Notes: generated by a model from the sequence alone, not told the origin. A stretch of DNA of 64,000 bases from Candidatus Hadarchaeum sp. (GCF_049969415.1 NZ_JBMFOX010000002.1:41467-105466); one strand, 5' to 3'. Counted from the stretch's first letter, positions 19,476 through 59,032 are shown. A program made the numbers and translations.

Positions 19476-19476
19476 G

Positions 19477-41579: not shown

Positions 41580-41585
41580 TAGTGA

Positions 41586-42263
41586 ATGGATGAGTTGGGA
41601 TCAGCCGAACTGCTGGCGATATTCACGGTCTTTGTAATTCTTTCCAGTCTTGCGGCACTGAATACCTTTGAATCCGGTTACACGCGCCAGATCGAGTTGT
41701 TGCAAGAAAGGATGGCGGTTGACACCACTAGGGCCGTGGCTCTTGCTGTTGAAGCGGAACTGAATGATTCCCTTAGATCCGCAGTGGCCGCGGCCATGTT
41801 TGAGGCCGGTAAGTTTGCCGGATCAAAGGCAGAGGTGGAGTCACGCTTGCGAAACTACTTTAACCAGCGCATTGCCGCAGGGTGGTCCTACTCCAATTTC
41901 GATAATATCTACGTCCCGTTGAGCGATGAAAACTCGTTACAAATTGAGTGGCTACCTGATGGAGGCGTCCGCGTCTACGGCTATCTGGGGGCGAGCTTTA
42001 GCCATGTGTCCGGGGCCAAGGCCTTTGGAGTCAAGCTGGATGCTGGCGTTACCCCCCGCTACGGAAGAATGCTTTATCTAGCCAACTTGGCCTACGGCTG
42101 GGCACAGAAGGCAGCGGATATCGAGGCATTGGAAAGGGAGCTCAACGAGAACTATGCGGCGGAGATGTTTTCGTTCCACATTTACCGCGAAAACGGTGCC
42201 TTGAAGCTGACCATTACGGAGCTGTACGGCGGGCGGGCGATAACCCCGGAAGGCGAGGGCTGA
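41586..42263 (+). CDS. Pilin-like protein with probable class III signal peptide
   Basis: MDELG|SAELL plus hydrophobic helix. Confidence 0.65.
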   Translation: MDELGSAELLAIFTVFVILSSLAALNTFESGYTRQIELLQERMAVDTTRAVALAVEAELNDSLRSAVAAAMFEAGKFAGSKAEVESRLRNYFNQRIAAGWSYSNFDNIYVPLSDENSLQIEWLPDGGVRVYGYLGASFSHVSGAKAFGVKLDAGVTPRYGRMLYLANLAYGWAQKAADIEALERELNENYAAEMFSFHIYRENGALKLTITELYGGRAITPEGEG

Positions 42264-43659: not shown

Positions 43660-43689
43660 TCAAAAAATTTAGTATTTTTGATTTTTGGC

Positions 43690-43889
43690 GCGGGGACGAT
43701 CGCGAAACTACTCCGCGGCGGCTCGGTTACCCAGCCGCGCTTTCGTTTCGAGATCTTTATCCGACATCCATGCTTCGGTACACACTGCCGTGACCTTATC
43801 CACGGCCTCCCCCAGCTGCGCTGAGTTTTTCCGTGGATCCCCCGAACCCGTGGGTTCGAGTTCAGCCTGTTCTGTCGGCTTATCCCCGC
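43690..43889 (-). ncRNA. Unassigned structured ncRNA, copy 1 (200 nt)
   Basis: GC-rich island in an AT-rich spacer; terminal 7-bp stem GCGGGGA/UCCCCGC; nested stems with GNRA loops on the minus strand; own promoter; structural paralogue at 58616-58849. Confidence 0.8.
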
Positions 43890-43912
43890 AATTTCCATTT
43901 AACAAATTTTTA

Positions 43913-43927
43913 ATAATAAATTTTTCG
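43913..43927 (-). promoter_or_regulatory. BRE + TATA promoter of ncRNA copy 1
   Basis: Minus strand CGAAAAA TTTATTAT, with the TATA at -31 to -24 from the first G of the terminal stem. Confidence 0.7.
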
Positions 43928-43989
43928 ATAATGTTTCAGCGTTTTTTGACGTTGAAAGTCTAGTTTTTGATCAACATTTGTGTTCTAGT

Positions 43990-45252
43990 TTACGGGAAGA
44001 GACCCAGTCTTTCTTGGGCGTCTATTACCCTTTTGACACCGAGGATGTAGGCGCCTGTGGGCAAATCAACTTGGTATTCATTCGCAGTCTTTGAAGCGTC
44101 GTGGTAAGCTTTCACCATGTGATTTTCTAGTTTTTGGTTGACCTCGCTTTCGCTCCAGTGCTCTCGGTGGAGGTTTTGTATCCATTCAAAATAGCTGACG
44201 GTAACCCCACCTGCGTTGGCCAGGATATCGGGAACGACGAGCACTCCCTGCTCGTGCAATATTTCCCTAGCTTTTGGCGTGCTGGGACCATTCGCGCCCT
44301 CAGATATGATTTTTGCCTTGATTTTGCTCGCGTTCGCCTCGGTTATCACGTTTTCCATCGCCGCCGGTACCAGAATATCGCACTCTAGCTGTAGGAGTTC
44401 TTCATTGGTAATCTCCTCTCCGCGGCCGAACCCACGCAACTTACCTGTTTTCTCCTTGTGTTTTATCGCGGCTTTGACATCAAATCCCTTCGGATCGTAG
44501 ATGCCGCAGGTTGAGTCGCTCAAGCCAATTATCTTACAACCCATCTCTTCGAGGACCGCCGCTGCCCACTGGCCGACGTTGCCAAAGCCCTGAACCACGG
44601 CCGTTAGTCCTTTCATTTTCAGCCCCAGTTGTTTGGCGGCCTCTCTGGCACAGATGGCCGCACCGCGTCCGGTCGCTTGTTTTCTCCCCTCAGAACCGCC
44701 GAGTTCAATCGGCTTTCCGGTGACGACTTCAGGTACCATATAACCCCTGAGCTGGCTGTAAGTGTCCATTATCCAGGCCATCGTTTGGGCATCGGTGTAC
44801 ATATCCGGAGCCGGCACATCTTTGAAGGGGCCGATGTCGTCAAAGATCATGGCAGTATATCTTCTCGTCAATCTTTCAATTTCACCCTTCGACAACTGTT
44901 TTGTATCCACAGTTACGCCACCCTTGGCCCCGCCGTAGGGTATATCAACCACGGCGCATTTCCAAGTCATCCACATCGCCAGTGCCTTGACTTCGTCCAT
45001 GTCGACTTTCGGATGGTATCTTATGCCTCCCTTGAAAGGACCTCTAGCGTGGCAATGCTGGACTCGGTAGCCGGTAAAAACCTTTATTTCCCCGTTGTCC
45101 ATGCGCACGGGAACGGAGACAATAATTGTTCGGCGTGGGTGTTTTAATCTTATAGTTACACAAGGGTCCAACTTCAATATTTCTTCAATAATTTCCAATT
45201 GTTCTACCGCGGCTTTGTATGGGTTTAAATTGCTTGCCGTAATGTCACCCAA
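43990..45252 (-). CDS. gdhA: Glutamate dehydrogenase
   Basis: RGPFKGGIRYHP, MTWKCA, GGAKGG, DVPAPD, VQGFGNVG, NAGGVTVSYFEW. Confidence 0.97.
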   Translation of the reverse strand: MGDITASNLNPYKAAVEQLEIIEEILKLDPCVTIRLKHPRRTIIVSVPVRMDNGEIKVFTGYRVQHCHARGPFKGGIRYHPKVDMDEVKALAMWMTWKCAVVDIPYGGAKGGVTVDTKQLSKGEIERLTRRYTAMIFDDIGPFKDVPAPDMYTDAQTMAWIMDTYSQLRGYMVPEVVTGKPIELGGSEGRKQATGRGAAICAREAAKQLGLKMKGLTAVVQGFGNVGQWAAAVLEEMGCKIIGLSDSTCGIYDPKGFDVKAAIKHKEKTGKLRGFGRGEEITNEELLQLECDILVPAAMENVITEANASKIKAKIISEGANGPSTPKAREILHEQGVLVVPDILANAGGVTVSYFEWIQNLHREHWSESEVNQKLENHMVKAYHDASKTANEYQVDLPTGAYILGVKRVIDAQERLGLFP

Positions 45253-45393
45253 AGAGAGTAGCTACAACTATTTATAAGATTTATCAAAAGCACCTAACTG
45301 GTATTTTTAGGATTATATTGGGGAAATGTTAATCACAAGTACTTAACCAAAAGCAAGATAATAAGCCCTTGCGTTTAATATTAAGAGGATAAC

Positions 45394-46638
45394 GTGAACG
45401 ATTTCACCCATGTGGTAACGCTGGAATCGGCCAAGGCAGCGTTGGAAGAAAAATGGCGGCCCAAGCCCCGCGATGTAGTTATTCCGGCCGCTTCCGCAGT
45501 TGGTCGGGTTTTGTCAAAGGATATAATTTCCAAAATAGACGTTCCTCCGTTTGACCGGGCGACCTATGATGGCTACGCAGTAAAAGCCTCAGATACCTTT
45601 GGTGCTACCGAGCGCTCGCCCATTGAACTTAGGCTGGCGGGAAGGGTTGTGGCGGGAACTTGGCCAAAGATGGTTCTGAGGTCGGGATTCTGTGCTGAGA
45701 TAACTACGGGGGCACCGCTGCCACGAGGAGCAGATGCAGTGGTAATGTCGGAATACGTTGTGCCGGCGGATGGTTCGGTAACTTGCTACCGAGCTGTATC
45801 CCCCGGGGAGAACGTTACCAAGAGGGGCTCCGATATCAGAAAAGGACAGCCGGTGCTCAGGAGATTAAAACGGCTTAATTACCTTGATGTTGCTGTTCTT
45901 GCGGCGGCGGGGGTTGATAAAGTCATGGTTAGGGACAGGCCAAGGGTGGCGATTATCTCTACTGGTTCGGAGCTGGTGGAGCCAGGAGCAAGGCTTAGGC
46001 CGGGAAAGATCTACGACGTTAATGCGACATCACTCTCGGAGTCGGTGAGGGCCTGCGGTGCCGAACCAATTTTTCTTGGCATTGTGCCTGACAGATTTTC
46101 GGCCATCAAAGCCGCGGTAAGTAAAGGAATCAAAGCCACCAACATAGTCCTGATCTCTGGCGGTTCTTCCGTGGGTGTGGGGGACATTACCCCTGGAGCG
46201 GTAGCCAGCTTGGGTAAACCGGGCATCATCGTTCATGGTATCGCCATGAAACCGGGTAAACCGACTTTCATTGCCGTGGTCAAAAATAAGCCCGTCTTCG
46301 GCCTTCCAGGCTACCCCGTTTCTGCTCTCATGGTATTTGACCAGCTCGTCGCCGATTACCTGCATGAACTCTCAGGAGTCCCGCGGAGCCCGCGGCGTAT
46401 TGTCCCGGCAAAGCTCGCGTCCAGGATTCTTTCGGCTAAGGGCAGGAAGGAACTCGTCCCGGTCAGACTGGTGAAAAAAAACGGCCAGAATTTTGCCGAG
46501 CCGGTTCTTAAGGGATCGGGGGCCATCACTTCTCTCTCAACCGCCGACGGCTACATTGAGGTGCCGCTGGAGCGAGAAATCGTTGACGAGGGCGAGGTTG
46601 TTGAGGTGAAGCTTTTTGAAGGGGTCGACCATACCTAG
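45394..46638 (+). CDS. moeA: MoeA (paralogue 2)
   Basis: PPFDRATYDGYAV, STGSEL, SGGSSVG, MKPGKP, LPGYPVS. Confidence 0.95.
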   Translation: MNDFTHVVTLESAKAALEEKWRPKPRDVVIPAASAVGRVLSKDIISKIDVPPFDRATYDGYAVKASDTFGATERSPIELRLAGRVVAGTWPKMVLRSGFCAEITTGAPLPRGADAVVMSEYVVPADGSVTCYRAVSPGENVTKRGSDIRKGQPVLRRLKRLNYLDVAVLAAAGVDKVMVRDRPRVAIISTGSELVEPGARLRPGKIYDVNATSLSESVRACGAEPIFLGIVPDRFSAIKAAVSKGIKATNIVLISGGSSVGVGDITPGAVASLGKPGIIVHGIAMKPGKPTFIAVVKNKPVFGLPGYPVSALMVFDQLVADYLHELSGVPRSPRRIVPAKLASRILSAKGRKELVPVRLVKKNGQNFAEPVLKGSGAITSLSTADGYIEVPLEREIVDEGEVVEVKLFEGVDHT

Positions 46639-47365
46639 GGCCGTTTCAGTTGTTGGCTTTCATGGCGCGGGAAAGACGAAACTGGTGGTCTCGATTATCA
46701 AGGAGCTGGTTAGACGCGGTTACCGAGTGGGCACGGTGAAACACATCCCGGAAAGAAATTTCACCATTGATCAGGCCGGTAAGGATACATGGACGCACGC
46801 TAGGGCCGGTGCCGAGCTGGTGGTTTCCCTTGCCCCTGGCGAGTTGGCCAGAATTGAAAAACGTTCGGGAGGGCTAGATGAAATTCTAGGGGGCTTGTCT
46901 GGGATCGACTTTGTTATCGTTGAGGGTTTCAAAAGTTTCAGAGGTCTCGCAAGGATAATCGTGGCGAGGAACCGAGCCGAGGTCAACGAACTCGCGGACG
47001 AGTTCACCATTGCCTGCGTGGGGTTTAGCTCCTCCTCGATTCCGTCCTTTGATTTCAAGCAGGTTAAAGAGATAGTGGATTTAATCGAGCAAAGGTCCTT
47101 TCCACCTCTTCCGGGCATCGACTGTAAACACTGCGGCTTTGAGAGCTGCGAGAAGTTTGCCATCGCTGTAGTTTCCGGTAGGAGACGGTGGGAGGAATGC
47201 CAAGCGCTTGCCAGAGAGGTAGTTTTGAAAATAGATGGCAGGCAGATTCCCCTCAAACCATTTGTCCAAGAATTTCTGGCCGGAGCGATTAAGGGGATGG
47301 TAAGCTCGCTCAAGGATACCCAAGGCAGAAACATCGAGATAATGGTGATAAATCGTGATGGATAG
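46616..47365 (+). CDS. mobB: Molybdopterin-guanine dinucleotide biosynthesis protein B with C-terminal Fe-S domain
   Basis: GFHGAGKT, VKH, GKDT, VEGFK, LPGIDCKHCGFESC...C. Confidence 0.9.
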   Translation: MKGSTIPRAVSVVGFHGAGKTKLVVSIIKELVRRGYRVGTVKHIPERNFTIDQAGKDTWTHARAGAELVVSLAPGELARIEKRSGGLDEILGGLSGIDFVIVEGFKSFRGLARIIVARNRAEVNELADEFTIACVGFSSSSIPSFDFKQVKEIVDLIEQRSFPPLPGIDCKHCGFESCEKFAIAVVSGRRRWEECQALAREVVLKIDGRQIPLKPFVQEFLAGAIKGMVSSLKDTQGRNIEIMVINRDG

Positions 47366-48287
47366 ATACGGGCGTTCAGTCAATGGACTCAGGGTCTCGG
47401 TGACCGAGGCCTGCAATTTCAACTGCTTTTACTGCCATCGCGAGGGCTGCCCGGAGAGTTCCCGGGAGATGTCTTCCGAGGAAGTGGGCTGCATAATAGA
47501 GATAGCGGCGGGGTTCGGCGTGGAGAAGGTCAAGATTACTGGAGGGGAGCCGCTGCTCCGCCGGGATATAGTTGATATTGTCGCCGCCTCGGTGAAGCCC
47601 GGGATAAAAGAGGTTTCCATGACGACCAATGGTGCCCTGCTTTCCGAAAAGGCGCAGGAGCTTGCAGAGGCAGGCCTTAATCGGGTCAACATCAGCCTAG
47701 ACACCCTTGATGCCGAAAAATTTGCTAGGATTACCCATAACGGGTCATTGGGGAAAGTACTTGACGGGATAGACGCCGCACTTGAGGCCAAGCTTGTTCC
47801 CATTAAGTTGAATATGGTGTTGCTCAAGGGAATAAATGAAGATGAGGTCGACCGAATGATTGACTTTGCTGGCAAGCGGGGCATGATACTGCAGCTCATC
47901 GAGCTGGTGGACTTGAACGGAGCTGATTTTAGGGAGCATCACCTCGCCCTCGAGGAAATCGAACGTAGCCTTGCCGCCCGAGCCACCGTTGTCAGAACAA
48001 GGCGATTGATGCAGTCCCGCAAGAGGTACCTGTTGCCTAATGGAGAGGTTGAGGTGGTGCGCCCGATGCACAACACGAAGTTCTGCGCCCACTGCCATCG
48101 GCTACGGCTGACACCCGACGGCTACCTCAAACCGTGTTTAATGAGGAACGACAACTTGGTAGATATTCTGTCGCATGTTCGGGAGGGAGACCTTAATGGG
48201 GCAAGGAGGGCGTTTGTCGAGGCGGTGCGGAGGCGGGAACCGTTTTTTAAGAGAACGGAGCGGGAGAGATGTCCGCACGCGCTGTGA
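47355..48287 (+). CDS. moaA: GTP 3',8-cyclase (radical SAM)
   Basis: LRVSVT..CNFNCFYCH, TGGEP, FCAHCHRLRLT.DG.LKPCL. Confidence 0.96.
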   Translation: MMDRYGRSVNGLRVSVTEACNFNCFYCHREGCPESSREMSSEEVGCIIEIAAGFGVEKVKITGGEPLLRRDIVDIVAASVKPGIKEVSMTTNGALLSEKAQELAEAGLNRVNISLDTLDAEKFARITHNGSLGKVLDGIDAALEAKLVPIKLNMVLLKGINEDEVDRMIDFAGKRGMILQLIELVDLNGADFREHHLALEEIERSLAARATVVRTRRLMQSRKRYLLPNGEVEVVRPMHNTKFCAHCHRLRLTPDGYLKPCLMRNDNLVDILSHVREGDLNGARRAFVEAVRRREPFFKRTERERCPHAL

Positions 48288-48384
48288 TCTGCGACGCGGT
48301 GGCAGCCTAAGATTTCCGGTTTTGGCGGTCCGGCCATAGGTGGTGATTTATAGATTAAAATCGAGGATTCCACTTGGTGTGGTG

Positions 48385-49482
48385 ATGGGGGGAAATACCT
48401 TCGGCAAGATTTTTAAGATAACCACCTTTGGAGAAAGCCATGGGCTGGCGGTTGGGGTGGTGGTCGATGGCGTGCCCGCAGGGATGCCGCTGAGCGAGGC
48501 CGATGTCCAGCGTGAACTTGACCGACGGCGCCCTGGTCAATCGATTTTAACAACGCAACGGAAGGAGCGAGATAAAGTGGAAATCCTCTCCGGAGTTTTT
48601 AAGGGGAGGACGATAGGCACCCCAATCTGCATGATCGTTCGCAATCTCGACGTTGATTCTCGGCCCTATGAAAAAGTCAGAACAAAGCCGCGCCCGGGCC
48701 ATGCCGATCTCACCTACTGGTTGAAGTATGGTCATGTTGATTATCGGGGAGGAGGGAGAAGCTCCGCTCGAGAGACGATAGGGAGGGTAGCGGCCGGGGC
48801 CGTTGCAAAGAAGCTCTTGGCGGCGTACGGTGTAGAGATCTTGGGCCACACCGTGGAGGCAGCGGGCGTGGCCATCGACCGGCAGCCAACGCTGAAGGAG
48901 ATTAAAAGGAACGTGGAGAAAAATCCGGTAAGGTGTGCCATACCTGAAAAAGCGGAGATGATGCTAAAGGCGATTTTACAGGCCGCCGCCGAAGGTGACA
49001 GTACTGGCGGCGTCGTCGAGGTGCAGGCGCACGGTGTCCCTGCCGGACTAGGTGAGCCTGTGTTTGGGAAGCTGGATGCTGAGATAGCTGCCGCGATGAT
49101 GTCTATCGGTTCCGTCAAGGCGGTTGTCATCGGGGAGGGAGACAAACTTGCGCGCTTGCGGGGCTCTGAGGCCAACGATGCGATTGTAATTCGAAAAGGA
49201 AGGATAGTCACCGCCACCAACCGGGCGGGCGGCGTTCTGGGAGGAATCTCCACCGGGATGCCAATTGTGGTGCGTCTGATGGTTAAGCCCACACCTTCGA
49301 TATCGAAACCGCAGCGGACCGTTGACTTGGTAAAAATGGAGGAAGCTGAGATCAGTCTCGAGGGGCGCTTTGACCCCAACATCTGTCCGCGGATAGTGCC
49401 CGTGGCCGAGGCGATGCTGGCGCTGGTCTTGGCCGACCACATGATCCGCGCTGGAAAAATTAATCCCGACAGATTTGTCTGA
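48385..49482 (+). CDS. aroC: Chorismate synthase
   Basis: [40 protein letters not shown]. Confidence 0.97.
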
Positions 49483-50368
49483 GGGAGGGGCTGGTTTGGG
49501 GAGAGGAGTCGGTATCGCTTCTGCCTGCGCTTCAGCCACCGTGGTCAACGCCATCGCGGCCGGAAAGGGCGCGGCCTTCGGGATTGATTTGAGAGTTCAG
49601 GCGACGGTAAGAATAACCAAGCAAAGGAAGATATCCGGTAGAATCTTGGGTGAGAAAAAAGAAAGCCCGAAGCTGATCGAGACTTGCGTCCGGCGGGTTC
49701 TGGAAAGCATTGGCCTAGAAAAAAGCGGGGCCGTTGTCGAGACCACATCTGAAATCCCAATTGCGGCGGGGTTGTCGAGCAGCAGCGCAGCCGCCAACGC
49801 AACGGTTCTGGCAACTTTCGCAGCCTGTGATCAACGGCCCACGCCGGAGCAGGTACTGGAACTGGGAATTGAATCGGCCTTCGAAGCCGGAGTCACGGTG
49901 ACAGGGGCTCTCGATGACGCGGCGGCATCATTCTTCGGTTGCGGTGTGATTACCGATAATTTGAAGCGAAGGATTTTGAAGAAATTTAAGGTGGATCCGC
50001 ACCTGATGGTGGTGATTCACGTTCCGCCGAAGAAGTTTTACACTTCTAAAGTCAGCCCAGAAAAACTGCACCATCTGCGTGGCCCGATTAAGTCGGTTCA
50101 TCGCATGGCCAGTCGCGGCGAAATCTGGAAGGCCCTGACCATCAATGGTCTGCTTTATTCCACCGCGCTTGGCCATGACTCGATGATTGCAATCGAGGCC
50201 ATTTCCCAGGGCGCTGTGGCCGCCGGGCTGACCGGCACTGGATCCGCCACCGTCGCGGTCGCAGAACCGGATAAAGTTGTGGACATAGTCAAGGCCTGGC
50301 GAAATTGGCCGGGCAGGATATTGATCACCCGGCCCGCAGTTGAGGGCGCGAGGGTGGAGGGAGTCTGA
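49475..50368 (+). CDS. aroK: Archaeal shikimate kinase (GHMP family)
   Basis: [38 protein letters not shown]. Confidence 0.92.
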
Positions 50369-51156
50369 TGGCTGGCGGTGATTTAAAGGAGATTCGGCGC
50401 AGGATAGATGAGATCGATGAAAATCTGATCAAGCTGCTCGCGGAAAGGCTCAGGATCTCTCGGGACATCGCCGTTTTGAAAAAGAAGCTTGGCGCTAAGA
50501 TTAGGGACGAGGTGCGGGAACGCTATGTGATTGATCGTGCCCGCAATCTGGCGCGGGAACTTGGCATAGATCCTGATTTTATTGAAAGCGTGATGAGGTT
50601 GGTCATGGCCCAGATGGTTGGCGAGGAGAAGTTGCATCTGGGCGGCGTGGGGGTCTGGAACTGGGTTCAGCAGGCCTTCAGGGATTATCCCGCCCAGATG
50701 AGCGTGGCAAGGGTGATGTTCAAATATGGTCTCAGGGTTCTTGAGGATGGCACGATTGCCTGTGGCAACATCAGAATCCCCGCGGTTCAAATAGCTAAGG
50801 AGGCCGGGGTTGACCGGAGGGTTGTTGATGCCACCGCCCGTCGTATCCTCAACAACCGGAAGCTACGCGAGATCTTTGAGAATCTGGAGCCCATCGCCTA
50901 TCTCAAGGGTTTTGCGCAGCAGCTCGGGCTAGGGGTAATCGAGATAATCCCCGAAGATGCTTCTAGGCCAGGGATACTGGAGGAGGTTACCGGGGTTATT
51001 GCCAAATTTGGACTTAGCATCAGGCAGTCGGTGACTGATGACCCCCATTTCGTGCCGCAGCCAAAGTTAACCATCATCACCGATGAACCGGTGAAGGGAA
51101 AGGTTATCGAGGCGCTGAGGAGGCTGCCCAGCGTCAGAAGCGTGATAGTTTATTAA
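50368..51156 (+). CDS. Chorismate mutase (AroQ) fused to an archaeal HTH-ACT amino-acid-metabolism regulator
   Basis: LKEIRRRIDEID..LLAER..K...RD..RE, then IAKEAGVDRRVV and ACT PGIL..V...ISIRQ....DP. Confidence 0.8.
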   Translation: MAGGDLKEIRRRIDEIDENLIKLLAERLRISRDIAVLKKKLGAKIRDEVRERYVIDRARNLARELGIDPDFIESVMRLVMAQMVGEEKLHLGGVGVWNWVQQAFRDYPAQMSVARVMFKYGLRVLEDGTIACGNIRIPAVQIAKEAGVDRRVVDATARRILNNRKLREIFENLEPIAYLKGFAQQLGLGVIEIIPEDASRPGILEEVTGVIAKFGLSIRQSVTDDPHFVPQPKLTIITDEPVKGKVIEALRRLPSVRSVIVY

Positions 51157-51163
51157 TTCAGAT

Positions 51164-51454
51164 TCAGAGCCTGACTAGCTGGGCGTGTGGCACCCCCGCT
51201 ATTCTGAGCACGTTTCTTTTTTCGATAATTCCGGCATCAATCGCGTGGTCCACTATTGAGCCTAGCAGGTTGGCGATGGTGGCGTTACGCAGGGCTTGAA
51301 TGCACTCGTCAATGGTGGCCTCCCTCCCGCAATAAAAAGATTCCTTGACCTCGATCTGAAATTTACCTTCCTTGAATTTTTTCCCCAAAAGCTCGCGGTC
51401 GCAGATGATGACCAGATTTTCGCCTTGAGTTTGGATGATTCTTAGTAAGGGCAG
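51164..51454 (-). CDS. DUF424 family protein (probable CTG start at 51454)
   Basis: ENLVIICDRELLGKKF.EG...V.ESFY.G, ANLLG, GVPHAQ; conserved N-terminus lies upstream of the track's TTG. Confidence 0.85.
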   Translation of the reverse strand: MPLLRIIQTQGENLVIICDRELLGKKFKEGKFQIEVKESFYCGREATIDECIQALRNATIANLLGSIVDHAIDAGIIEKRNVLRIAGVPHAQLVRL

Positions 51455-51456
51455 AT

Positions 51457-51867
51457 TTACACTCCCCTGACCGGATTGCGTGCCCCGCAGGCTTCACACC
51501 TCAGGACGTAAACCCGTTCCCGCTTTTCCAGCCTGGTGTCTGGTTTTCCGCATTCCTTGCAGAGTACGAACTCTTCAGCATAGCGTCGGATTCTATCCTG
51601 AACCACGACGGCCGAGAACTTTCCCTGAAACACGGCTTGGGCCCCTTGGATATCGCCGGCTGCTCCGAGCTCCCTAAGAAGATACTTCATCAGGTGCTCC
51701 GGCTCACGGTTGAAGGCCGCCGCAATGCTTTTGAAATTTCTGAGGATGGTTCGGTTGCCCACCGTGGCTACGTCGGCCTCGGGAATCTGAAAACGGGAGC
51801 TCTCAAAGACAGTTTTGGGCACCTGCTCGATTGCCCTTTCCAGCAACTTTTCGTAGTCCTCTTCCAT
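51457..51867 (-). CDS. eif2b: Translation initiation factor aIF-2 beta
   Basis: YEKLLERA, RFQIP, GNRTILRNF, HLMKYLLRELG, CKECGKPDT..CEACGA. Confidence 0.95.
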   Translation of the reverse strand: MEEDYEKLLERAIEQVPKTVFESSRFQIPEADVATVGNRTILRNFKSIAAAFNREPEHLMKYLLRELGAAGDIQGAQAVFQGKFSAVVVQDRIRRYAEEFVLCKECGKPDTRLEKRERVYVLRCEACGARNPVRGV

Positions 51868-51871
51868 CCCC

Positions 51872-52582
51872 TCACCTCGCCAGCCTGAACTTACCCGCTG
51901 TTGGTTCAAATACATCACCCTCGACGAACATAACCCTGAGGATGTCGTTGACTTGGGAAAGGCTCAGGTTCAGCTCGTTGGCTATCTTGATGGGCTCCAC
52001 TCCCGAGCCCGTGTCGAGCTTATCAATCGCGATGGCCACTTTCTTCTTGAGTTCGTCGGGGACAACCGGAAGAGGCTCCTCCTCAGCCTCTGCGGCCTCG
52101 GTGCCTACTTCTTGAGTGGCGGTTATCTTCAGTTCCTTGGGCTCCAGCCTGGCGAACTTTGGTCGCACTCCCGCGGCAATTGCCTCCCGCCTTGTAGCAA
52201 TTATCTCGAGTTCCCTCACCAGCTCCCAGTTGAGGTCTTCGACACGGATGAGAAGTTCCGGCGTGAGATAGATCTCCCCTTGAAATTCTCTCACCCTCCC
52301 GATGACGTCCACGGTGTCACCCAAGTTGAATTTGTCGAACTCCTTGGCGCCCTCCTGCCAAGCCCTGAGGCTGATCGTTTCACTTCCGTCGTCTATCCTC
52401 AGCGTCGCGTAGTTTTGGTCCTCCCGGATGAATTTATCGACCAAAGTCCCCATCACCCGAACCCTAGTGACCTGCTCACCCCAAGGCGTTAGAAGGAAGC
52501 TTGGCTGCGTGCCGTCGGGGGAGCGGATATACCGGCCCAGCACGATGTCCTCTATCTTCATCTTATAAGCCACGGGTCGCAT
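51872..52582 (-). CDS. RPA2/RPA32-like subunit (OB fold + C-terminal winged helix)
   Basis: RVRVMGTLV, IDDGSETI, VIGRVREF, C-terminal EGDVFEP..G. Confidence 0.8.
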   Translation of the reverse strand: MRPVAYKMKIEDIVLGRYIRSPDGTQPSFLLTPWGEQVTRVRVMGTLVDKFIREDQNYATLRIDDGSETISLRAWQEGAKEFDKFNLGDTVDVIGRVREFQGEIYLTPELLIRVEDLNWELVRELEIIATRREAIAAGVRPKFARLEPKELKITATQEVGTEAAEAEEEPLPVVPDELKKKVAIAIDKLDTGSGVEPIKIANELNLSLSQVNDILRVMFVEGDVFEPTAGKFRLAR

Positions 52583-52608
52583 TATAATCGTGGAATATCT
52601 GGGGTCGA

Positions 52609-53184
52609 ATGCTTATGAGCTTTCCGCGCCGGGTCAAGATTTTCAAGATCAGGACCACAACCGGGGTTAGGTTTCTTGGTCTGGCGGCGGGCATCTTCAT
52701 GGTGGACAGCGTGGATGATTTCATCAGGAGGATGGTCCAAATGGACGCCGAGATGGATACCGTCACTCAAGCCTTTAACGCCTCTCGGGTTGCTGGGGCT
52801 GAGCATCTTGTCCATTCCTCACGTTTGGCCATTATCGCGAATGAAAGAGGATGCGGCTTTGCCGATTGCCTTGCCGTCGAGCTCATCTGCTGGGCCGCCG
52901 CCGAGCGTCAGATTTACCGGGCCTTCGAGAAGATTGGTGTTCGCCAAGGTAGAAATGCTCTCGCGGTGGCCTCAGTTGGTCGCCCTGAGGTCAGGGTGAA
53001 AAAGACGGTCGGAAAAATTTTTGATGAATTTGGAGCTGAATGGGATAACTCGTTGATGGACTTCCGGCAGGAAAAATCCTTGGGATTGCAGCGGATTTTT
53101 TCAATAACCCCTGAGGAAACTGCGGTGGCACCCCTCCAGAAAATAGTGCTTGAAAGGGTGGCGCTGCTGGCGCTGGCGAAATGA
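52609..53184 (+). CDS. cgi121: KEOPS complex subunit Cgi121 (start uncertain)
   Basis: QAFNA..VAG.EHL, E.ICWAAAERQI..A.EKIG, VLERVALL. Confidence 0.82.
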   Translation: MLMSFPRRVKIFKIRTTTGVRFLGLAAGIFMVDSVDDFIRRMVQMDAEMDTVTQAFNASRVAGAEHLVHSSRLAIIANERGCGFADCLAVELICWAAAERQIYRAFEKIGVRQGRNALAVASVGRPEVRVKKTVGKIFDEFGAEWDNSLMDFRQEKSLGLQRIFSITPEETAVAPLQKIVLERVALLALAK

Positions 53185-53185
53185 G

Positions 53186-53488
53186 TTAAACGAGTCTGAG
53201 CTGCGTCAATAATTCTTCAAACTCCTCGTCCTTGGCCACGCCGACGATCCTCGAGCATGCAGGCATGATGGGTTTGTCTGAGGTCACAATTTTTCCCTCA
53301 TCGTCTATGGTGGCATATTTTCCCGAGAGCTTTTCCTTAGCTTCTGTCACGAGGCAGACAACTTCCCTTTCCGATCCCACATAAAGGTAATAGTAGTGTT
53401 TTCCTTGGTGGTGGTAATAAAAGAGCCAGCCCTGGTTGCGGGCGATGCTCAGCAGATCCTCTATTTCATTGCACCAGATAGTTCGCAT
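53186..53488 (-). CDS. Hypothetical protein
   Basis: 100-aa ORF filling the gap, same strand as the upstream operon. Confidence 0.55.
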   Translation of the reverse strand: MRTIWCNEIEDLLSIARNQGWLFYYHHQGKHYYYLYVGSEREVVCLVTEAKEKLSGKYATIDDEGKIVTSDKPIMPACSRIVGVAKDEEFEELLTQLRLV

Positions 53489-54654
53489 ATGGCGCAGGCC
53501 TCCTTCTGGAACTTTTCAATGCCCTCAAATGATCCGCGCACGAGGACGATGTCGTTGGCCCTTAACTTAACGTTTCCTCCTGGGGTGATGATGTGCTTTC
53601 CGTCCCTCTTTATCACCAGCACATAGACTCCGACCGTGCCCCAGAGGTTCAGCTTTTCGAGTGTTTTGTTGACGAATCTCGAATTCGGAGATATTTTAAC
53701 CCGGCAGATTTTTTCCAGCGACTCTGAAAGGGCCTTGGCGAAGACCGGGTGTAGCTCTATTTTTCTAATGACGATATCGACTATCGAGTCGGCGGCGTCA
53801 GTTATCGATTCCATATATCTCGCCAGCTGGAGGACACTGTTCAATTCCGCGATGTTTCTCCTTTCCCTTGCCGCGATTTTCAGGGTGTCCAGCCAGGCCT
53901 GGTAGTTGAACCTGTTGAAAGCCTCCTCTATTTCCCTGACTTCTTCAGCGACTTCGGTAGAGCCCAACATAAGTGAAGAGTAGGCTAGGTCCACGGCGAT
54001 GTCGCTCAAGTCGCGCATTTTTGAAAGTTCTTTGCGGAGTTTTTTCAGTTTAGTTTCGATAGTTAATGGCCCCATCGGCGTCCCGGCCATTTCATGAATA
54101 ATTCTCATCCCATAGGGCGGGCCTTTGACCACCAGCTCATCTTCTGCCAAGAGCTGAGCGTCCTTAGCTATTGGAGCCATCCATTCGTTTTTCCTCTTGA
54201 TGGCCATGACCCAGACCCCAATGCTGGAGGGCAGCCTAAGGTCGCGTAAAGATTTGCTGTCGAGCGAAGATCCGGGCGAGATCTTCAGCTTGCATATCTT
54301 TTCGTCTGCAGCTTTCAGGGCGTCCTTTATCACCGGGTGAATGCCGATTTTCATTTTGATGAGGTCAGCAATGTCACCGGCGGCGTTAGAAATGGCCTCT
54401 GCCGAACTGGCTACTTGCAGGATTCCAGTTATCTTATGCGCCTCCCTGACGTTTCGGGCCGCGACAGCTGCCATGATTCTTATCGTGTACATCAGCTCGT
54501 CCATCTTTGACTCCAACTGATGCACTAAATCGGCCAGCTCGCTGCTTTCGTAGAGCAAAGCCGCGTAAGCTAGGTCCACCATCAGGTCGGAGGTGTCTTT
54601 CATCTCCGTCAGGAGCTCGCGCACGCTCCGTGGTTTATATTCTGGAGGTTGCAT
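53461..54654 (-). CDS. PhoU/TrkA-C tandem-repeat protein (ion-transport regulator)
   Basis: Two repeats of EMKD.S.L.VDLAY..L, each followed by an RCK_C-like domain. Confidence 0.85.
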   Translation of the reverse strand: MQPPEYKPRSVRELLTEMKDTSDLMVDLAYAALLYESSELADLVHQLESKMDELMYTIRIMAAVAARNVREAHKITGILQVASSAEAISNAAGDIADLIKMKIGIHPVIKDALKAADEKICKLKISPGSSLDSKSLRDLRLPSSIGVWVMAIKRKNEWMAPIAKDAQLLAEDELVVKGPPYGMRIIHEMAGTPMGPLTIETKLKKLRKELSKMRDLSDIAVDLAYSSLMLGSTEVAEEVREIEEAFNRFNYQAWLDTLKIAARERRNIAELNSVLQLARYMESITDAADSIVDIVIRKIELHPVFAKALSESLEKICRVKISPNSRFVNKTLEKLNLWGTVGVYVLVIKRDGKHIITPGGNVKLRANDIVLVRGSFEGIEKFQKEACAICELSGAMK

Positions 54655-54656
54655 TT

Positions 54657-55226
54657 TTACACTCCTATTATTTTCATCGCTATAATTAAGCATGTAACCC
54701 CAGCTATGTCCCCAATTGAGGTGACAATGGGAATCACTACGTTGTCGGGATCCAGACCTCTAGAGAACGAGACAAAGGCCAGCCAGATCGTGCAGAAAAT
54801 GGTCACGCCTATCGCCGCCATGCTGGCCAAGAAAAACGCTGCTATAATGGTCAAAGATTGAAACAGGTTTATTCCGGAGATCAGTGATAAGATAAAAAAT
54901 ATTGCGCTGGTAAACAGGAAGACGCCGATGCTCATGATCCAGGTGGCGCGGATATTTCTCCTAAGAGCCACCTGCCTGCCGAACTTGGGCTCAATGGTAC
55001 CGATGTGGAGCGCTGAAGTAAGCCTTGAGCCAAGGATGCTGCAGACGTTGTTGTTGATGCCGTTTATCGGCGGCACCATCGTTAGGATCAGTGGTAGCGT
55101 TTTGATGCTTTCCAGCTGTGAGCTGAGGATAAGACCGGCGGTGAGCGAGATAACTGCGCAGAGGATGAGCACCGGGTAGCTCTCCCACAAAATTCTCCTC
55201 AGGTTGTACGCGGTCATGAGTATCAC
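54657..55226 (-). CDS. MgtE-family (SLC41-like) membrane domain protein
   Basis: GSRLTSALHIG, GLDPDNVVIP..TSIGD. Confidence 0.88.
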   Translation of the reverse strand: MILMTAYNLRRILWESYPVLILCAVISLTAGLILSSQLESIKTLPLILTMVPPINGINNNVCSILGSRLTSALHIGTIEPKFGRQVALRRNIRATWIMSIGVFLFTSAIFFILSLISGINLFQSLTIIAAFFLASMAAIGVTIFCTIWLAFVSFSRGLDPDNVVIPIVTSIGDIAGVTCLIIAMKIIGV

Positions 55227-55783
55227 ACAAACAATACTACGATGAAAATGGAGATCATAGTGATTAGATCCCCGATGGTAGCCATCAGCGGAGCCGTGAT
55301 GTTGTCAGGGTCCCAGCCCCTAACGTAAGAGAATACGGAAATGAAGATGGTTAGGGCGGTGAGGATAACTCCGGAAATGAAACCGGCTGCCACCGCGATG
55401 ATGATGAGGGAAACAAAGTTGATGGCGCCCATCCCAAGGACGAGGCCAATTAACGAGGCGATTAGTCCAATGGTGGCCGAGGCGGCGAGGTTGAGGATTA
55501 ACGAGGAGATGACGTTTACCTTGAGTTCGTCGGTCATCGAGAGCTTAGGTTCCAGAATACCGGTGTGGAGGGCGGTGCCAAGCCGTGAAGCCAACGCACC
55601 GTTGACGTTTCCTCTCAAATCCAGCAGAGGCGGAATAATTAGGATAAGTCCGGGAAGGGTGACGGTGACACGTTCCTTCATCCCCTCCAAAACACTTCCG
55701 GCCAAGATTTCGATGATGGCGCAGATGACTAGGATGAAAAGCCCTTGAATGACTACCGCCCTAACGTCGACGCTCTGGGGCAT
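55223..55783 (-). CDS. MgtE-family (SLC41-like) membrane domain protein
   Basis: RGNV.GALASRLGTALHTG, GWDPDNI.AP..ATIGD. Confidence 0.88.
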   Translation of the reverse strand: MPQSVDVRAVVIQGLFILVICAIIEILAGSVLEGMKERVTVTLPGLILIIPPLLDLRGNVNGALASRLGTALHTGILEPKLSMTDELKVNVISSLILNLAASATIGLIASLIGLVLGMGAINFVSLIIIAVAAGFISGVILTALTIFISVFSYVRGWDPDNITAPLMATIGDLITMISIFIVVLFV

Positions 55784-56254
55784 AGGTTCACCTTTAAAGG
55801 CGTTGGTCTTCATTCTATAATACATTTTATAATTGAAGGCTCAAACCAGATGCTTTAGATGCGAGGCCGGTCTGAGCCTTTAGAATCAAAAGTTTTCCCG
55901 CGTTGCTTCGGAGAGCGTACAGACCACCAAGAATTATTTTTGGCAGTGACGTTGTAGAAATTACAGACGCGGTCTGTTTTAACATCGGATTTTCTTCCCG
56001 AGCGCAGCTCCTTGACTGCCTTCACGTATAACTCGTGATTGAACTTCTCGGCTCTCAAGGTTCCGGTATCGCCCGCAGTTCCTTTCAGACCAAAAACAGA
56101 TCACGATTCGAGACAGAACTATTCTTTGGGCTTCTAAGAAAGGCCAGATATCTTCGGTGGGGTTGAGTTTCCAATTCCACGTATCGTTCGTTGAGACAGT
56201 TTTACCATGGTGAACGATAGGTTTTATATTATAACATGGTTATAGTTTATCCTG

Positions 56255-56497
56255 ATGACAACGATCACTGAAAAACCAAAAATCACGTTGGATTGCTTAG
56301 GGCTGTACTGCCCTGAGCCCGTGTTCCGAACGCGTTTGGAGTTGGACAAGCTCGATTCTGGGGATGTCTTGGAAGTGCTGGCTGACGATCCGGCTGCGGT
56401 GGAGGATATCGGAAGTCTGATCAAGCACCTTGGTCATGAACTCTTGAATTTGACTAGGGAGGGCGATGTCATCCGGTTTTTAATCAGAAAAAAGTGA
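56255..56497 (+). CDS. tusA: Sulfur carrier TusA/SirA
   Basis: LDCLGLYCPEP, LEVLADDPAA..DI. Confidence 0.93.
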   Translation: MTTITEKPKITLDCLGLYCPEPVFRTRLELDKLDSGDVLEVLADDPAAVEDIGSLIKHLGHELLNLTREGDVIRFLIRKK

Positions 56498-56506
56498 GGT
56501 GATTTT

Positions 56507-56869
56507 ATGGGAAAGAAGATCCTGTATCTCCAGACCAGTGGGGTTGACACACCTGAGCGCACATATGCACCCTTTATCTTGGCGACCACGGCGGCAGCGA
56601 TGGGGATAGAGGCAACGATTTACTTTTTGATAAAGGGAGTTACCTTGGTCAAGAAGGGCGAGGCGGAGAAAATTAAATTGGGAAGTTTTCCCCCACTGAA
56701 GCAGGTGATGGATCAAGCGGTTCGGGCTGGCGTGAAGCTTGAGGTCTGTGAGCAGAGCTGTCAGCTGCTGGGGTTGGGTCGCGGAGACTTTGTAGAGCCA
56801 GCCAAGATTGTTGGTGCGGCAACGTTAAACGATCGAGTTCTGGAAGCCGATGCGGTCCTGTGCTTCTGA
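56507..56869 (+). CDS. DsrE/F-like protein
   Basis: APFILATTAAAMG, FLIKGV, VCEQS, IVGAAT. Confidence 0.85.
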   Translation: MGKKILYLQTSGVDTPERTYAPFILATTAAAMGIEATIYFLIKGVTLVKKGEAEKIKLGSFPPLKQVMDQAVRAGVKLEVCEQSCQLLGLGRGDFVEPAKIVGAATLNDRVLEADAVLCF

Positions 56870-56879
56870 AGGGACGGTA

Positions 56880-58064
56880 ATGATGAGAAGGGTTTACTTG
56901 GATCATGCCGCTGGTAGGCCGGTAGATGCCCGCGTCATCGAGGCCATGCTCCCTTACTTCATCCAGAAGTACGGGAATCCTTCCCTGGTCCACACCCCTG
57001 GCAATGAAGCCCGCGAGGCGATTGAAGTAGCTCGTGAAAAAGTGGCGAGGCTAATCGGGGCTTCCAAAAAGGAGGAGATCGTTTTTACCTCTGGAGCCAC
57101 GGAGAGCAATAATCTGGCCCTGAAGGGGGTGGCGTTGAGAAACCGTGACCGCGGCAATCACATTATCACTAGTTCCATCGAGCACATGTCGGTGATCAAC
57201 GTCTGTAAGGATCTGGCGAAGCAGGGGTTTGAGATCACCTATCTGCCCGTGGACAGATACGGCGTGGTCGATGTTGAGGCCCTGAAAAAGGAGATGACGG
57301 AGAGAACGGTTCTGGTGTCGATAATGTACGCCAACGGCGAAATCGGGACCATCGAGCCGATTAAAGAGATCAGCGACGTAGTTCACGACCACGGCGCATT
57401 GCTGCACGTGGATGCCGTGGCCGCCGCAGGACAGATTCCGATAGATGTCGAGGCGGAGCATGTCGATTTGCTTTCGCTTTCGTCCAACGATATTTACGGC
57501 CCCCGCGGTGTGGGAGCCCTCTACATCAGGTCGGGAACCCGGATCATGCCAATTTTGCAAGGGGGCGGTCAGGAGCGGGGACTGAGGTCGGGGACGGAGA
57601 ACTTGCCCGGCATCGTTGGAATGGGCAAGGCCGCTGAGATTGCTGGCGCTGAGATGGAGGTAGAATCGCGAAGGTTGACAGTGTTGCGGGATAGGTTGAT
57701 CCGAGGCATTCTGGAGACCATCCCGGTTTCCTTTCTCAACGGACATCCGACTAACCGGCTGCCAAACAACGCCAACGTCCGGTTTAGCTACATCGAAGGC
57801 GAGGCCCTGATATTGAGCTTGGACATGGAGGGTGTGGTCTGCTCCTCCGGTTCTGCCTGCACCTCGAAGACGCTCGAGCCCTCCCACGTGTTGCTGGCCA
57901 CAGGACTGAAGCACGAGGAGGCGCACGGGTCGCTCCTGTTTACTCTCGGGAGGCAGAACACTGAAGAGGATATGGAGTACGTGTTGGGTTTATTACCTGG
58001 AATTGTGAAAAGGTTGCGGGTAATGTCTCCGCTCACGCCGAAGGAGTTGGTTGCTGATGTATAG
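56880..58064 (+). CDS. iscS: Cysteine desulfurase IscS/NifS
   Basis: YLDHAA, GNPS, FTSGATESNN, RSGTEN, SSGSAC; PLP-site reads SSNDIYGP instead of S.HK.YGP. Confidence 0.9.
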   Translation: MMRRVYLDHAAGRPVDARVIEAMLPYFIQKYGNPSLVHTPGNEAREAIEVAREKVARLIGASKKEEIVFTSGATESNNLALKGVALRNRDRGNHIITSSIEHMSVINVCKDLAKQGFEITYLPVDRYGVVDVEALKKEMTERTVLVSIMYANGEIGTIEPIKEISDVVHDHGALLHVDAVAAAGQIPIDVEAEHVDLLSLSSNDIYGPRGVGALYIRSGTRIMPILQGGGQERGLRSGTENLPGIVGMGKAAEIAGAEMEVESRRLTVLRDRLIRGILETIPVSFLNGHPTNRLPNNANVRFSYIEGEALILSLDMEGVVCSSGSACTSKTLEPSHVLLATGLKHEEAHGSLLFTLGRQNTEEDMEYVLGLLPGIVKRLRVMSPLTPKELVADV

Positions 58065-58434
58065 CGATAAGGTGATGGAACACTTCAGGAACCCGCGCAA
58101 CATGGGGGAGATTCCGGATGCCGATGGCGTTGGCACCGTGGGCAACCCCGTCTGCGGGGACATGATGACGATCTACATCAAGGTAAAGGACAACAGGATC
58201 GCCGACATCAAGTTCAAGACCTTTGGCTGCGGTGCCGCGATAGCTACCAGCAGCATGACCACCGAGCTGGCCAAGGGCAAGACCATTGAGGAGGCGCTGC
58301 GGATCACCAGGGAGGATGTGGCCAGGGATTTGGGAGGACTGCCTCCCGTGAAGATGCACTGTTCCAATCTGGCCGCGGACGCGTTGCATGCAGCGATAAA
58401 GGATTACCTGCAAAAGGAGGTAAAAAATGACTGA
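58057..58434 (+). CDS. iscU: Fe-S cluster scaffold IscU/NifU
   Basis: HFRNPRN, NPVCGD, FGCGAAIA, LPPVKMHCS. Confidence 0.96.
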   Translation: MYSDKVMEHFRNPRNMGEIPDADGVGTVGNPVCGDMMTIYIKVKDNRIADIKFKTFGCGAAIATSSMTTELAKGKTIEEALRITREDVARDLGGLPPVKMHCSNLAADALHAAIKDYLQKEVKND

Positions 58435-58582
58435 GTTTGTAAGGTGCCGGATGTGTGGCTTGGAGCTGCGTGGCGAGAAGTGCCTCTTTGCCACACATCG
58501 AAGGGTGATTGGTGGTAGAGAATATCTCTTTTGTTGCGAAAAGCATGCTGAGGAATTTGAGAAGAAAATGGCGAAAAAGTAA
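58427..58582 (+). CDS. Small TRASH/YHS-like metal-binding protein (51 aa, not in ORF track)
   Basis: Own translation MTEFVRCRMCGLELRGEKCLFATHRRVIGGREYLFCCEKHAEEFEKKMAKK; SD AAGGAGGT; overlaps the iscU end. Confidence 0.8.
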   Translation: MTEFVRCRMCGLELRGEKCLFATHRRVIGGREYLFCCEKHAEEFEKKMAKK

Positions 58583-58605
58583 AGTCAGATTTTTTCTCTA
58601 AATCC

Positions 58606-58615
58606 CAAATAAAAA
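58606..58615 (-). terminator. Oligo-U terminator of ncRNA copy 2
   Basis: Minus strand UUUUUAUUUG directly after the terminal stem. Confidence 0.55.
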
Positions 58616-58849
58616 GCGGCAGGGACTCGATCCCTCCACTACTCGTCCAGCGAGCTTGCGAATCTCGACCACTTCGCTCACTCGCCGTCTTTTCGTGTTG
58701 GGATCTTTTTCCTGCAGTCGCTGTCTCGTCCCGTTCCCCCACGGGACTTACCCGCGTCCTTCCCCGGTTTTTCGCCCGGGTTTTTACACGGGTCCCCGTT
58801 GCCCGTAGGCTCCGGTTCGACCACCTCTGCAGGCTTTGATCCCTGCCGC
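58616..58849 (-). ncRNA. Unassigned structured ncRNA, copy 2 (234 nt)
   Basis: 10-bp terminal stem GCGGCAGGGA/UCCCUGCCGC; cUACGg tetraloop; same stem order and junction motifs as 43690-43889; own promoter and U-tract. Confidence 0.8.
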
Positions 58850-58870
58850 ACTATTATCTACGTGTCTTTG

Positions 58871-58886
58871 TTTTTAAAGATTTTTT
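58871..58886 (-). promoter_or_regulatory. BRE + TATA promoter of ncRNA copy 2
   Basis: Minus strand AAAAAATC TTTAAAAA, with the TATA at about -29 to -22 from the first G. Confidence 0.65.
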
Positions 58887-59032
58887 GCCAAGTTGAGATA
58901 TTTCAGAATTGGGAAATGTGAAAAAAGATGATTGTTTCAGTAATTCGGATTTTATTTCACCCGATTTTGTAATTTTGCATTTTTATTTGGCCGGAAGAAG
59001 AAGCGATTGGAAAAGAGCAAAAATAACTGAAC

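Follow-up and report, generated by a model that had tools for sequence, protein, structure and literature searches.

A family of stand-alone, intricately folded RNAs in the archaeal phylum Hadarchaeota

The stretch of DNA analysed here, a window of 64,000 nucleotides (nt) from Candidatus Hadarchaeum sp. (GCF_049969415.1, NZ_JBMFOX010000002.1:41467-105466), carries on its minus strand two genes for GC-rich, intricately folded RNAs of approximately 195-235 nt, which belong to a family not catalogued before. No known family or kind of RNA fits them, and we regard the family as a genuine new orphan RNA class. That these RNA genes exist and stand alone, each with its own promoter and terminator, is in our judgement close to certain; what the RNAs do is a matter of much more tentative readings, which are weighed below. 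Throughout, genomes are given G numbers (G000 is the window's own genome, 1.47 Mb and 95% complete), loci L numbers, RNA-library runs X numbers, and families and genera f and g numbers, respectively. The two copies in the window are as follows.

43690-43889, minus strand: copy 1, short type, 200 nt, assigned from its sequence, its fold, a covariance-model match of 214.5 bits and the short-type alignment.
58616-58849, minus strand: copy 2, long type, 234 nt, assigned from its sequence, its fold, a covariance-model match of 266.9 bits, covariation and RNA-library contigs.

Copy 1 is laid out as a three-way junction closed by helix P1, from which a P2/P2b arm leads into a four-way junction bearing P3, P4 and P5, while its P6 arm holds a GAAA/GAGUA S-turn module and a GUAA-capped tip. 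In copy 2, in which RNA nucleotide n corresponds to window position 58850-n, P1 is formed by nt 1-11 and 224-234, P2 by nt 17-23 and 133-139, the four-way-junction domain by nt 26-130 and P6 by nt 145-221; the S-turn places GAAA (nt 156-159) opposite GAGUA (nt 206-210), and the apical loop is the conserved AGUGGUCGAGAU. The sequence and architecture that the original prediction had assigned to the two stretches were borne out by the sequence itself and by minimum free energy (MFE) folding, which in both copies returned P1, P2/P2b, the four-way junction, the 5x5 purine internal loop of P4 and the GAAA/GAGUA module of P6. The MFE was -99.4 kcal/mol for copy 1 (z -6.93) and -125.9 kcal/mol for copy 2 (z -10.57), with none of 200 dinucleotide shuffles as stable in either case. 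In a consensus of the two sequences, 13 of the 44 pairs are altered on both sides yet still paired.

A covariance model built from the two window copies was used to search the window's own genome and its relatives. As had been anticipated for such a model, it recovered further homologues that show covariation; one of them, at G000:C13:3685-3915, is a third copy from the window's own genome and lies beyond the window. Both proposed copies are genuine, but the count of two falls short for the genome, which has at least three. Matches to the covariance model were found in 43 of 61 related genomes, and across the phylum Hadarchaeota 51 of 66 genomes had the RNA, each with 1-6 copies. With G000 left out, the counts by family were 39/45 in f1, 6/6 in f2, 1/1 in f3, 3/3 in f5, 1/9 in f4 and 0/1 in f6; genus g15, which belongs to f4, had the RNA in none of its seven genomes. 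The covariance model found no copy in any of the five genomes searched from outside the order. An independent search with an exact IUPAC (degenerate-letter) pattern of the conserved P3 region, made in one genome for each of 185,579 species, gave 59 stretches, of which 57 bore a Hadesarchaea, Hadarchaeota, Hadarchaeum or Hodarchaeaceae label and the other two the labels "Methanobacteriota archaeon" and "uncultured archaeon". The family was seen only in Hadarchaeota, where it occurs in families f1, f2, f3 and f5 and in one f4 genome, all of a single order. Fifteen of the 66 phylum genomes gave no RNA, among them a 95%-complete genome of the same family in nine contigs, and some close relatives truly lack it.

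The alignment of the long type gives the structure strong support. Fifty-six distinct long-type copies were aligned by MAFFT, with no covariance model, and their structure was predicted by RNAalifold, giving 57 pairs of which 39 show compensatory double changes. In this alignment 97.5% of cells pair, against 85.6% in shuffles, and there are 380 double-change cells against 98.6 in shuffles, a count that none of 500 shuffles reached; slid controls, in which the partners were moved by 1-3 columns, never exceeded 56 double-change cells or 46% paired. Every helix covaries save the near-invariant P3, and even there family f5 has CCG/CGG replaced by CCC/GGG. The short type (13 copies including copy 1) has compensatory changes in 30 of 52 pairs, so that the selection on structure first read from two sequences is supported in both subtypes. 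An open frame of at least 70 codons is kept in 28 of the 56 long copies, a count that is not decisive as a coding test; the internal gaps among these copies are all single nucleotides, which together with the pairwise compensatory changes makes a poor fit to coding sequence.

The consensus structure that emerged has a G+C-rich P1 of 7-11 bp, often reaching 2 bp beyond the covariance-model match, which closes the three-way junction. The P2/P2b arm ends in the four-way junction, from which three further arms extend: P3 has a UNCG cap and a tandem GA/AA step, in P4 AAAAA faces GRAGG in a 5x5 purine internal loop, and a GGRRGA loop is found in P5. P6 combines an AA/GA step with the GAAA/GAGUA module, which is of the sarcin-ricin type. 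Conserved nucleotides concentrate in the junctions and loops and are largely purines, and the stems covary. A pairing between the tips of P4 and P6 was sought by eye, and only a 3-bp CGA/UCG match was seen, uncompensated in variants.

Two principal subtypes were distinguished. Long forms, to which copy 2 and the C13 copy belong, measure approximately 228-235 nt; their P4 tip is 8 nt long, and their 12-nt P6 loop, AGUGGUCGAGAU, is near-invariant. Short forms, copy 1 among them, measure approximately 194-219 nt, with a P4 tip of 3-4 nt and a short P6 tip in which mostly GUAA or GAAA is found. The subtypes vary only at the P4 and P6 tips and in their promoters; additional variants beyond the long and short forms also occur. 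Two copies from a single genome, G006 (L116:1501-1703 and L121:1501-1733), stood apart, with a GC content of 0.49, many broken pairs and MFE values of -55 and -57 kcal/mol as compared to about -100 to -126 kcal/mol in others, and from their sequences they look like decaying pseudogenes.

The gene anatomy around the two window copies was read from the flanking sequence and comprises the following elements (B recognition element, BRE).

43912-43921, minus strand: TATA-like box TTTATTATTA of copy 1, at about -32 to -23 from P1 nt 1, read in sequence.
43662-43667, minus strand: T6 run, 22 nt past P1 of copy 1, in an A/T hairpin adjoining the glnA stop; probable terminator.
58871-58887, minus strand: BRE (CAAAAAA) and TATA box (TCTTTAAAAA) of copy 2, at about -38 to -22 from P1, read in sequence.
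58611-58615, minus strand: T5 run directly past the last P1 nucleotide of copy 2; archaeal oligo-T terminator.
58894-58905, without strand: palindrome TGAAATATCTCA, at about -56 to -45, upstream of the copy 2 BRE.

The TATA-like box of copy 1 is likewise preceded by an A-rich, BRE-like stretch, so that the BRE and TATA elements originally claimed for both copies can be read in the sequence. The same arrangement recurs across the family: among unique copies with sufficient flank (55 long and 14 short), a TATA-like box lies at -40 to -19 in 44 long and 8 short copies, and TTTT follows within 15 nt of P1 in 53 long and 10 short copies. This combination of BRE/TATA and oligo-T terminator upholds the view that these are stand-alone genes and not 5′ leaders. 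Transcription start at P1 was inferred from TATA spacing; with the TATA box ending about 24 nt before P1 and the oligo-T following it, both ends of the RNA would be locked in the 7-11-bp helix. As also predicted, both copies face the 3′ end of an opposed gene, namely glnA for copy 1 and, for copy 2, an open reading frame (ORF) of 51 aa that follows nifU.

A palindrome of the form NNNN-ATAT-NNNN, with a family consensus of approximately TGGAAATATCTCCA, lies at -80 to -31 in 30 of the 55 long copies and one of the 14 short copies, against 29 of 5000 random genome windows. Besides copy 2, we noted such a palindrome at G000:C13:3964-3975 and upstream of other long copies (e.g. L054, L062 and L089). 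As a wider regulon motif it was rejected, given that in the window's own genome a palindrome with a following TATA box occurs at the two long copies only; it is presumed to be a transcription-factor site, perhaps a dedicated operator for the long-type genes.

Evidence at the RNA level came from assembled contigs, not raw reads, of four runs from three studies, at 85% likeness or more. Contigs from these libraries cover 58616-58855, with summed word depths of up to about 97,000 (X16), 255,000 (X17), 45,000 (X20) and 6.75 (X18). The RNA is represented in RNA libraries, in contigs that by their nature cannot show strand or ends, and it is probably highly expressed. None of the four runs had a contig on 58400-58615 or 58856-59100, an absence that we did not use as evidence. 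Another 20 runs had small shares and form no part of the evidence on expression or habitat.

No counterpart among catalogued RNAs was found. A scan of the whole window against Rfam 15 (4227 models) gave no match at the gathering threshold, and with E values of up to 10 the two copies returned chance-level scores only, the best being 19.2 bits against a gathering threshold of 115 and the others 13.9, 12.9 and 9.2 bits against 70, 49.5 and 55, respectively. Among 20 diverse homologue loci searched at E values of up to 1, the single Rfam match (E 0.9) lay outside the RNA. The novelty that the original prediction had made conditional on an Rfam scan thus stands for both copies. A search of the literature found no description of this RNA, although a listing in a supplementary table cannot be excluded.

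How, then, might the RNA act? Our preferred reading, which we hold tentatively and at somewhat less than even confidence, is that it forms a stable, compact ribonucleoprotein (RNP) core, for which we infer an action in trans. S-turns and tandem G.A steps are general platforms for proteins and tertiary contacts in structured RNAs, and in this RNA that part would be played by the S-turn together with the tandem G.A steps and the purine-rich junctions. The paralogues would be differently regulated versions of one RNA, because the long types carry the palindromic operator and the short types do not, and part of the RNA pool may be end-joined into circles.

Several observations weigh against an RNP core. 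No partner protein was identified, either from the neighbours or from a gene-content contrast between the RNA-positive genomes G000 and G037 and the RNA-negative G016. In this contrast, 723 of 1629 crude G000 ORFs had no tblastn match in G016, and 108 of these were present in G037; 70 of the 108 were scanned against Pfam, with 16 familyless ones rescanned against NCBIfam and with looser Pfam settings. The 70 represent metabolism and transport (AOR proteins, molybdenum- and tungsten-cofactor (Moco/Tuco) synthesis proteins, corrinoid proteins, the DnaK system, transport of cobalt and cations, pilin-like proteins and a PHP-family protein), and none was an evident RNA-binding candidate. The conserved neighbours (a DRG-type GTPase, a reductase-like flavoprotein, AOR, PolB and moeA) likewise offer no RNA-binding partner. 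The absence of the RNA from 15 of the 66 genomes means that it is not universally required, and conserved junctions with variable tips are equally typical of ligand-binding or catalytic RNAs. Lastly, the assembled contigs are silent on the level of the RNA as well as on its strand and ends, and DNA may be present in RNA libraries.

The neighbours themselves were surveyed for 75 unique copies. The commonest setting is a locus in which a DRG-type GTPase gene lies divergent upstream (27 copies) and a gene for a geranylgeranyl-reductase-like protein dependent on flavin adenine dinucleotide (FAD), cluster c0, lies convergent 6-15 nt downstream (34 copies). In genus g8 and its kin, this locus holds tandem short and long copies on one strand, approximately 86 nt apart and each with its own TATA box and oligo-T (L016:1214-1732, L023, L021, L020, L096, L072 and L049). 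Copy 2 sits in a nifS-nifU locus (genus g1), where the 51-aa ORF directly after nifU (58427-58582, plus strand), convergent with the RNA, is Cys-rich (CxxC ... CC); it has no Pfam match at 1e-5 and, judged by eye from its sequence, may encode a small metal-binding protein.

Next to the RNP core, the account to be taken most seriously is that the RNA binds a metabolite or cofactor of tungsten- or molybdenum-pterin metabolism, with the junction core as its ligand pocket, and acts in trans as a sensor, buffer or sponge, or else through a divergent promoter region that it has in common with moeA. By analogy it would resemble the bacterial Moco/Tuco riboswitch in function and not by homology, and we consider it possible but rather unlikely. 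It is the main rival because the short type lies divergent to moeA and some long copies follow genes for AOR, a family of tungstopterin enzymes. Two genes beside copy 1 bear on it.

45394-46638, plus strand: moeA, divergent from copy 1; Pfam MoeA_N, MoCF_biosynth and MoeA_C.
43990-45252, minus strand: gdhA, between copy 1 and moeA.

Of the 51 RNA-positive genomes, 16 carry a short-type RNA and a moeA paralogue on one contig, divergent to each other in every case, the gap between the RNA and MoeA_N being 119-283 nt in eight (G004, G006, G023, G028, G032, G027, G069 and G035) and 1.5-4.4 kb in the other eight, the window included. Intergenic spacers between RNA and moeA measured 96-234 nt at L118, L116, L125 and L128. 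In the window, the region 43990-47365 beside copy 1 contains gdhA followed by moeA and mobB, with a second moeA at 19462-20712, and gdhA looks like an insertion into the RNA-moeA spacer in the window's genus. An AOR gene adjoins 10 of the 75 unique copies and is upstream on the same strand in seven, and the order AOR, RNA, PolB was confirmed at L075.

Gene content and build point in the same direction. Within the 70 scanned contrast proteins, the tungsten/molybdenum-pterin set comprised six AOR (AFOR)-domain ORFs, one of them a chimeric call, two MoeA proteins, MobB, MoaE, two ThiS-family proteins (possibly MoaD) and a TupA-like fragment. The RNA-negative G016 has none of the MoeA, MobB, MoaE and ThiS-family proteins, the TupA/TupB-like transporter and the six AOR-family ORFs that are all common to G000 and G037, as though its tungsten-cofactor metabolism had been lost altogether. 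MoeA_N turned up in 48 of the 51 RNA-positive genomes and 10 of the 15 RNA-negative ones, and the five genomes negative for both fit a cofactor link. The RNA is also riboswitch-like in its build, with a multistem junction closed by P1, conserved junction purines and, in the short type, a GNRA tip.

Set against this, neither RF01055, the Moco/Tuco model, nor any other riboswitch model matched the copies even at E values of up to 10, and RF01055 matched none of the 20 homologue loci at E values of up to 1. The RNA has a promoter and terminator of its own, with no expression platform or coupled downstream ORF. Ten RNA-negative genomes keep moeA, including six of the seven of genus g15, so that the presence of MoeA was rejected as a discriminator and the cofactor link is suggestive, mainly by gene position, and not discriminating. 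Since AOR genes are plentiful, some would be expected to adjoin the RNA in any case; linkage among the related genomes of one family may be synteny that they inherited in common, as kin are not independent of one another; and the commonest locus, that of the DRG GTPase and the c0 reductase, has no cofactor link. A search of the literature for a tungsten regulator found nothing.

The published Moco motif (PMC2408646) is bacterial, measures approximately 130-140 nt and is built around a conserved multistem junction, with a GNRA/receptor pair. The likeness lies in the multistem junction closed by P1, the conservation of junctions, the GNRA tip (here of the short type) and the association with moeA and AOR; by contrast, the Hadarchaeota RNA is archaeal and approximately 200-235 nt long, has no covariance-model match, and is not in a 5′ untranslated region (UTR), lying divergent to moeA with its own promoter and terminator.

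Less probable still is that the RNA is a ribozyme whose core catalyses, for example, self-processing and end-joining to give circular or permuted forms, which we think improbable. Its basis is a set of head-to-tail joints in contigs from a single study (runs X16 and X17): 58844->58616, 58842->58624 and 58836->58627, with 3 or 9 letters between, going back 229, 219 and 210, respectively. A contig of 241 nt runs through RNA nt 46-234 and then nt 6-57, implying a 229-nt circle; another permuted contig runs through nt 138-223, nine letters and nt 14-102, with P1 missing. These contigs could represent circular RNA, a permuted form or template switching. A loose contig end was also seen, in which the 5′ end region continues into the reverse complement of the 3′ end of a homologue, and joints that skip 72-80 (58678->58759 and 58694->58767) may come from other paralogues or from assembly chimeras. 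The fold, which is large and looks globular, with invariant nucleotides at its junctions and a periphery particular to each subtype, would suit a catalyst. So would the failure to find an Rnl3-type RNA ligase in the 95%-complete genome; the sole PF09414 match (29.5 bits), considered as a circulariser, proved to be a 571-aa ATP-dependent DNA ligase and was rejected, and RtcB was not searched. Against catalysis, the RNA matches no self-cleaving or self-splicing family in Rfam and no conserved cleavage-site signature was identified; the permuted joints come from one study alone and are not listed for the other two runs, X18 and X20; and template switching by reverse transcriptase on an abundant RNA, or ligases such as RtcB, would yield the same joints.

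Circularised RNAs are documented in archaea, among them C/D box small RNAs, ribosomal RNA (rRNA) intermediates and omega RNAs (PMC3326292, PMC9014305 and PMC12558985). The present RNA resembles them in having ends held by a terminal helix and in the head-to-tail joints of RNA-library contigs, which may reflect circles. The Hadarchaeota RNA differs in that it is no C/D box, rRNA or omega RNA and that no Rnl3 gene was found, its circularity being a possibility raised by contigs.

A cis-acting 5′ leader or riboswitch of a downstream gene on the same strand, such as that for PolB, is very unlikely. Its appeal comes from a second type of locus, in which an AOR, ferredoxin or DUF362-like gene is followed by the RNA and then by PolB, all on one strand; this order was found for 11 of the 75 copies, with the called start of the PolB ORF 10-129 nt past the RNA, and it holds the only copy in families f2 and f5. 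Between the RNA and PolB, however, an oligo-T follows P1 and is itself followed by a second TATA-like box, and both window copies, as well as those in the commonest locus, face a convergent gene.

The RNAs known from all cells are accounted for elsewhere. Canonical 120-nt 5S rRNA genes lie at G000:C6:21605-21725 and C119:401-515, and 5S was found in 53 of 61 relatives; in the window's own genome, signal recognition particle (SRP) RNA (RF01857) is at C16:17850-18157 (156.9 bits) and RNase P RNA (RF00373) at C1:28967-29254 (196.1 bits), both above threshold, and ARAGORN found no tRNA or tmRNA gene in the window. The original prediction could not match the RNA to tRNA or to 5S, SRP or RNase P RNA, and divergent versions of these were ruled out. 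A Y-RNA-like RNA of a Ro RNP was rejected on the strength of no PF05731 (TROVE) match in the 95%-complete genome and no match to a Y-RNA model, a viral origin on that of no match of the P3 pattern in viral contigs, and a mobile element or miniature inverted-repeat transposable element (MITE) on that of recurrent syntenic loci (the same neighbours in 34/75 and 27/75) and of no transposase or nuclease among the neighbours of the 75 copies. Least probable of all, and largely refuted, is the idea of a divergent universal RNA, a mobile-element RNA or MITE, or a small protein gene: its closing helix with two arms and loop-E/S-turn module recall 5S rRNA, P1 could pass for a terminal inverted repeat, the RNA is multi-copy and half of the long copies have an open frame, but the universal RNAs have their own genes, the loci are syntenic across genera, and the gaps and pairwise substitutions are unlike those of coding sequence.

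Some known RNAs nevertheless offer instructive likenesses. The 5S rRNA shares a terminal helix, a three-way junction and an arm of the loop-E/sarcin-ricin type, while the Hadarchaeota RNA is twice the size, has a four-way junction in its other arm and does not match RF00001. Another likeness is to the Hgc RNAs of Methanocaldococcus and Pyrococcus, which we take to be Rfam RF00058 and RF00062-64. These are orphan, stand-alone, GC-rich, stable RNAs with their own promoters amid A+T-rich spacers, some of them multi-copy. The Hadarchaeota RNA is alike in standing alone, in its G+C-rich, stable fold amid A+T-rich spacers, in its own promoters and in sometimes being multi-copy, and differs in being larger, in its three-way and four-way junctions with an S-turn arm, and in having no Rfam match. 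OLE, raiA, ROOL and GOLLD are similar in their ornate covarying folds, conserved junctions, abundance, restriction to lineages and a genomic context that does not reveal function (for ROOL and GOLLD, 10.1101/2024.12.08.627333); the Hadarchaeota RNA by contrast is archaeal, measures approximately 200-235 nt, occurs as several subtypes per genome and has no sequence or covariance-model similarity to them.

Three further observations concern the genomes compared. In addition to the cofactor genes, G016 lacks DnaK, DnaJ and GrpE. At L257:14483-16643 (G000:C19) there are two LAGLIDADG homing-endonuclease-like ORFs (PF14528 and PF03161), which G037 has and G016 lacks. Small ORFs whose N-termini are hydrophobic occur in runs in the window at 40678-42263 (plus strand) and at L257:4-4109 (G000:C19); weak matches, obtained for the five C19 ORFs alone, comprised one class III signal-peptide and one ComGE-like protein, with two ORFs matching DUF families only and two without a match, and the runs may be type IV pilin-like operons.

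To our knowledge, large covariation-backed RNAs without known relatives are rare, and very few come from archaea. The present family is now defined by alignments, structure, subtypes and gene boundaries, and is conserved through most of an uncultured subsurface phylum, in multiple copies and with its own regulated promoters. This conservation, together with the copy number, the promoters and the deep sediment RNA contigs in three of the four runs, suggests that the RNA is probably important to the cells that carry it. Two leads follow from the analysis: one is the linkage of the RNA to moeA and AOR genes, the other the possibility that circular forms exist. There is some chance, which we would put as rather low, that the family represents a new class of functional RNA with its own chemistry rather than a passive scaffold. 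It would then be a ribozyme or else a trans-acting sensor or buffer for the tungsten/molybdenum pterin cofactor pathway, the first in archaea, and a substantial share of its molecules would be covalently closed or permuted in vivo. If cofactor-binding or catalytic, the family would extend riboswitch or ribozyme biology into archaea; if it is the core of an RNP, it would be the sign of a cellular machine not yet known.

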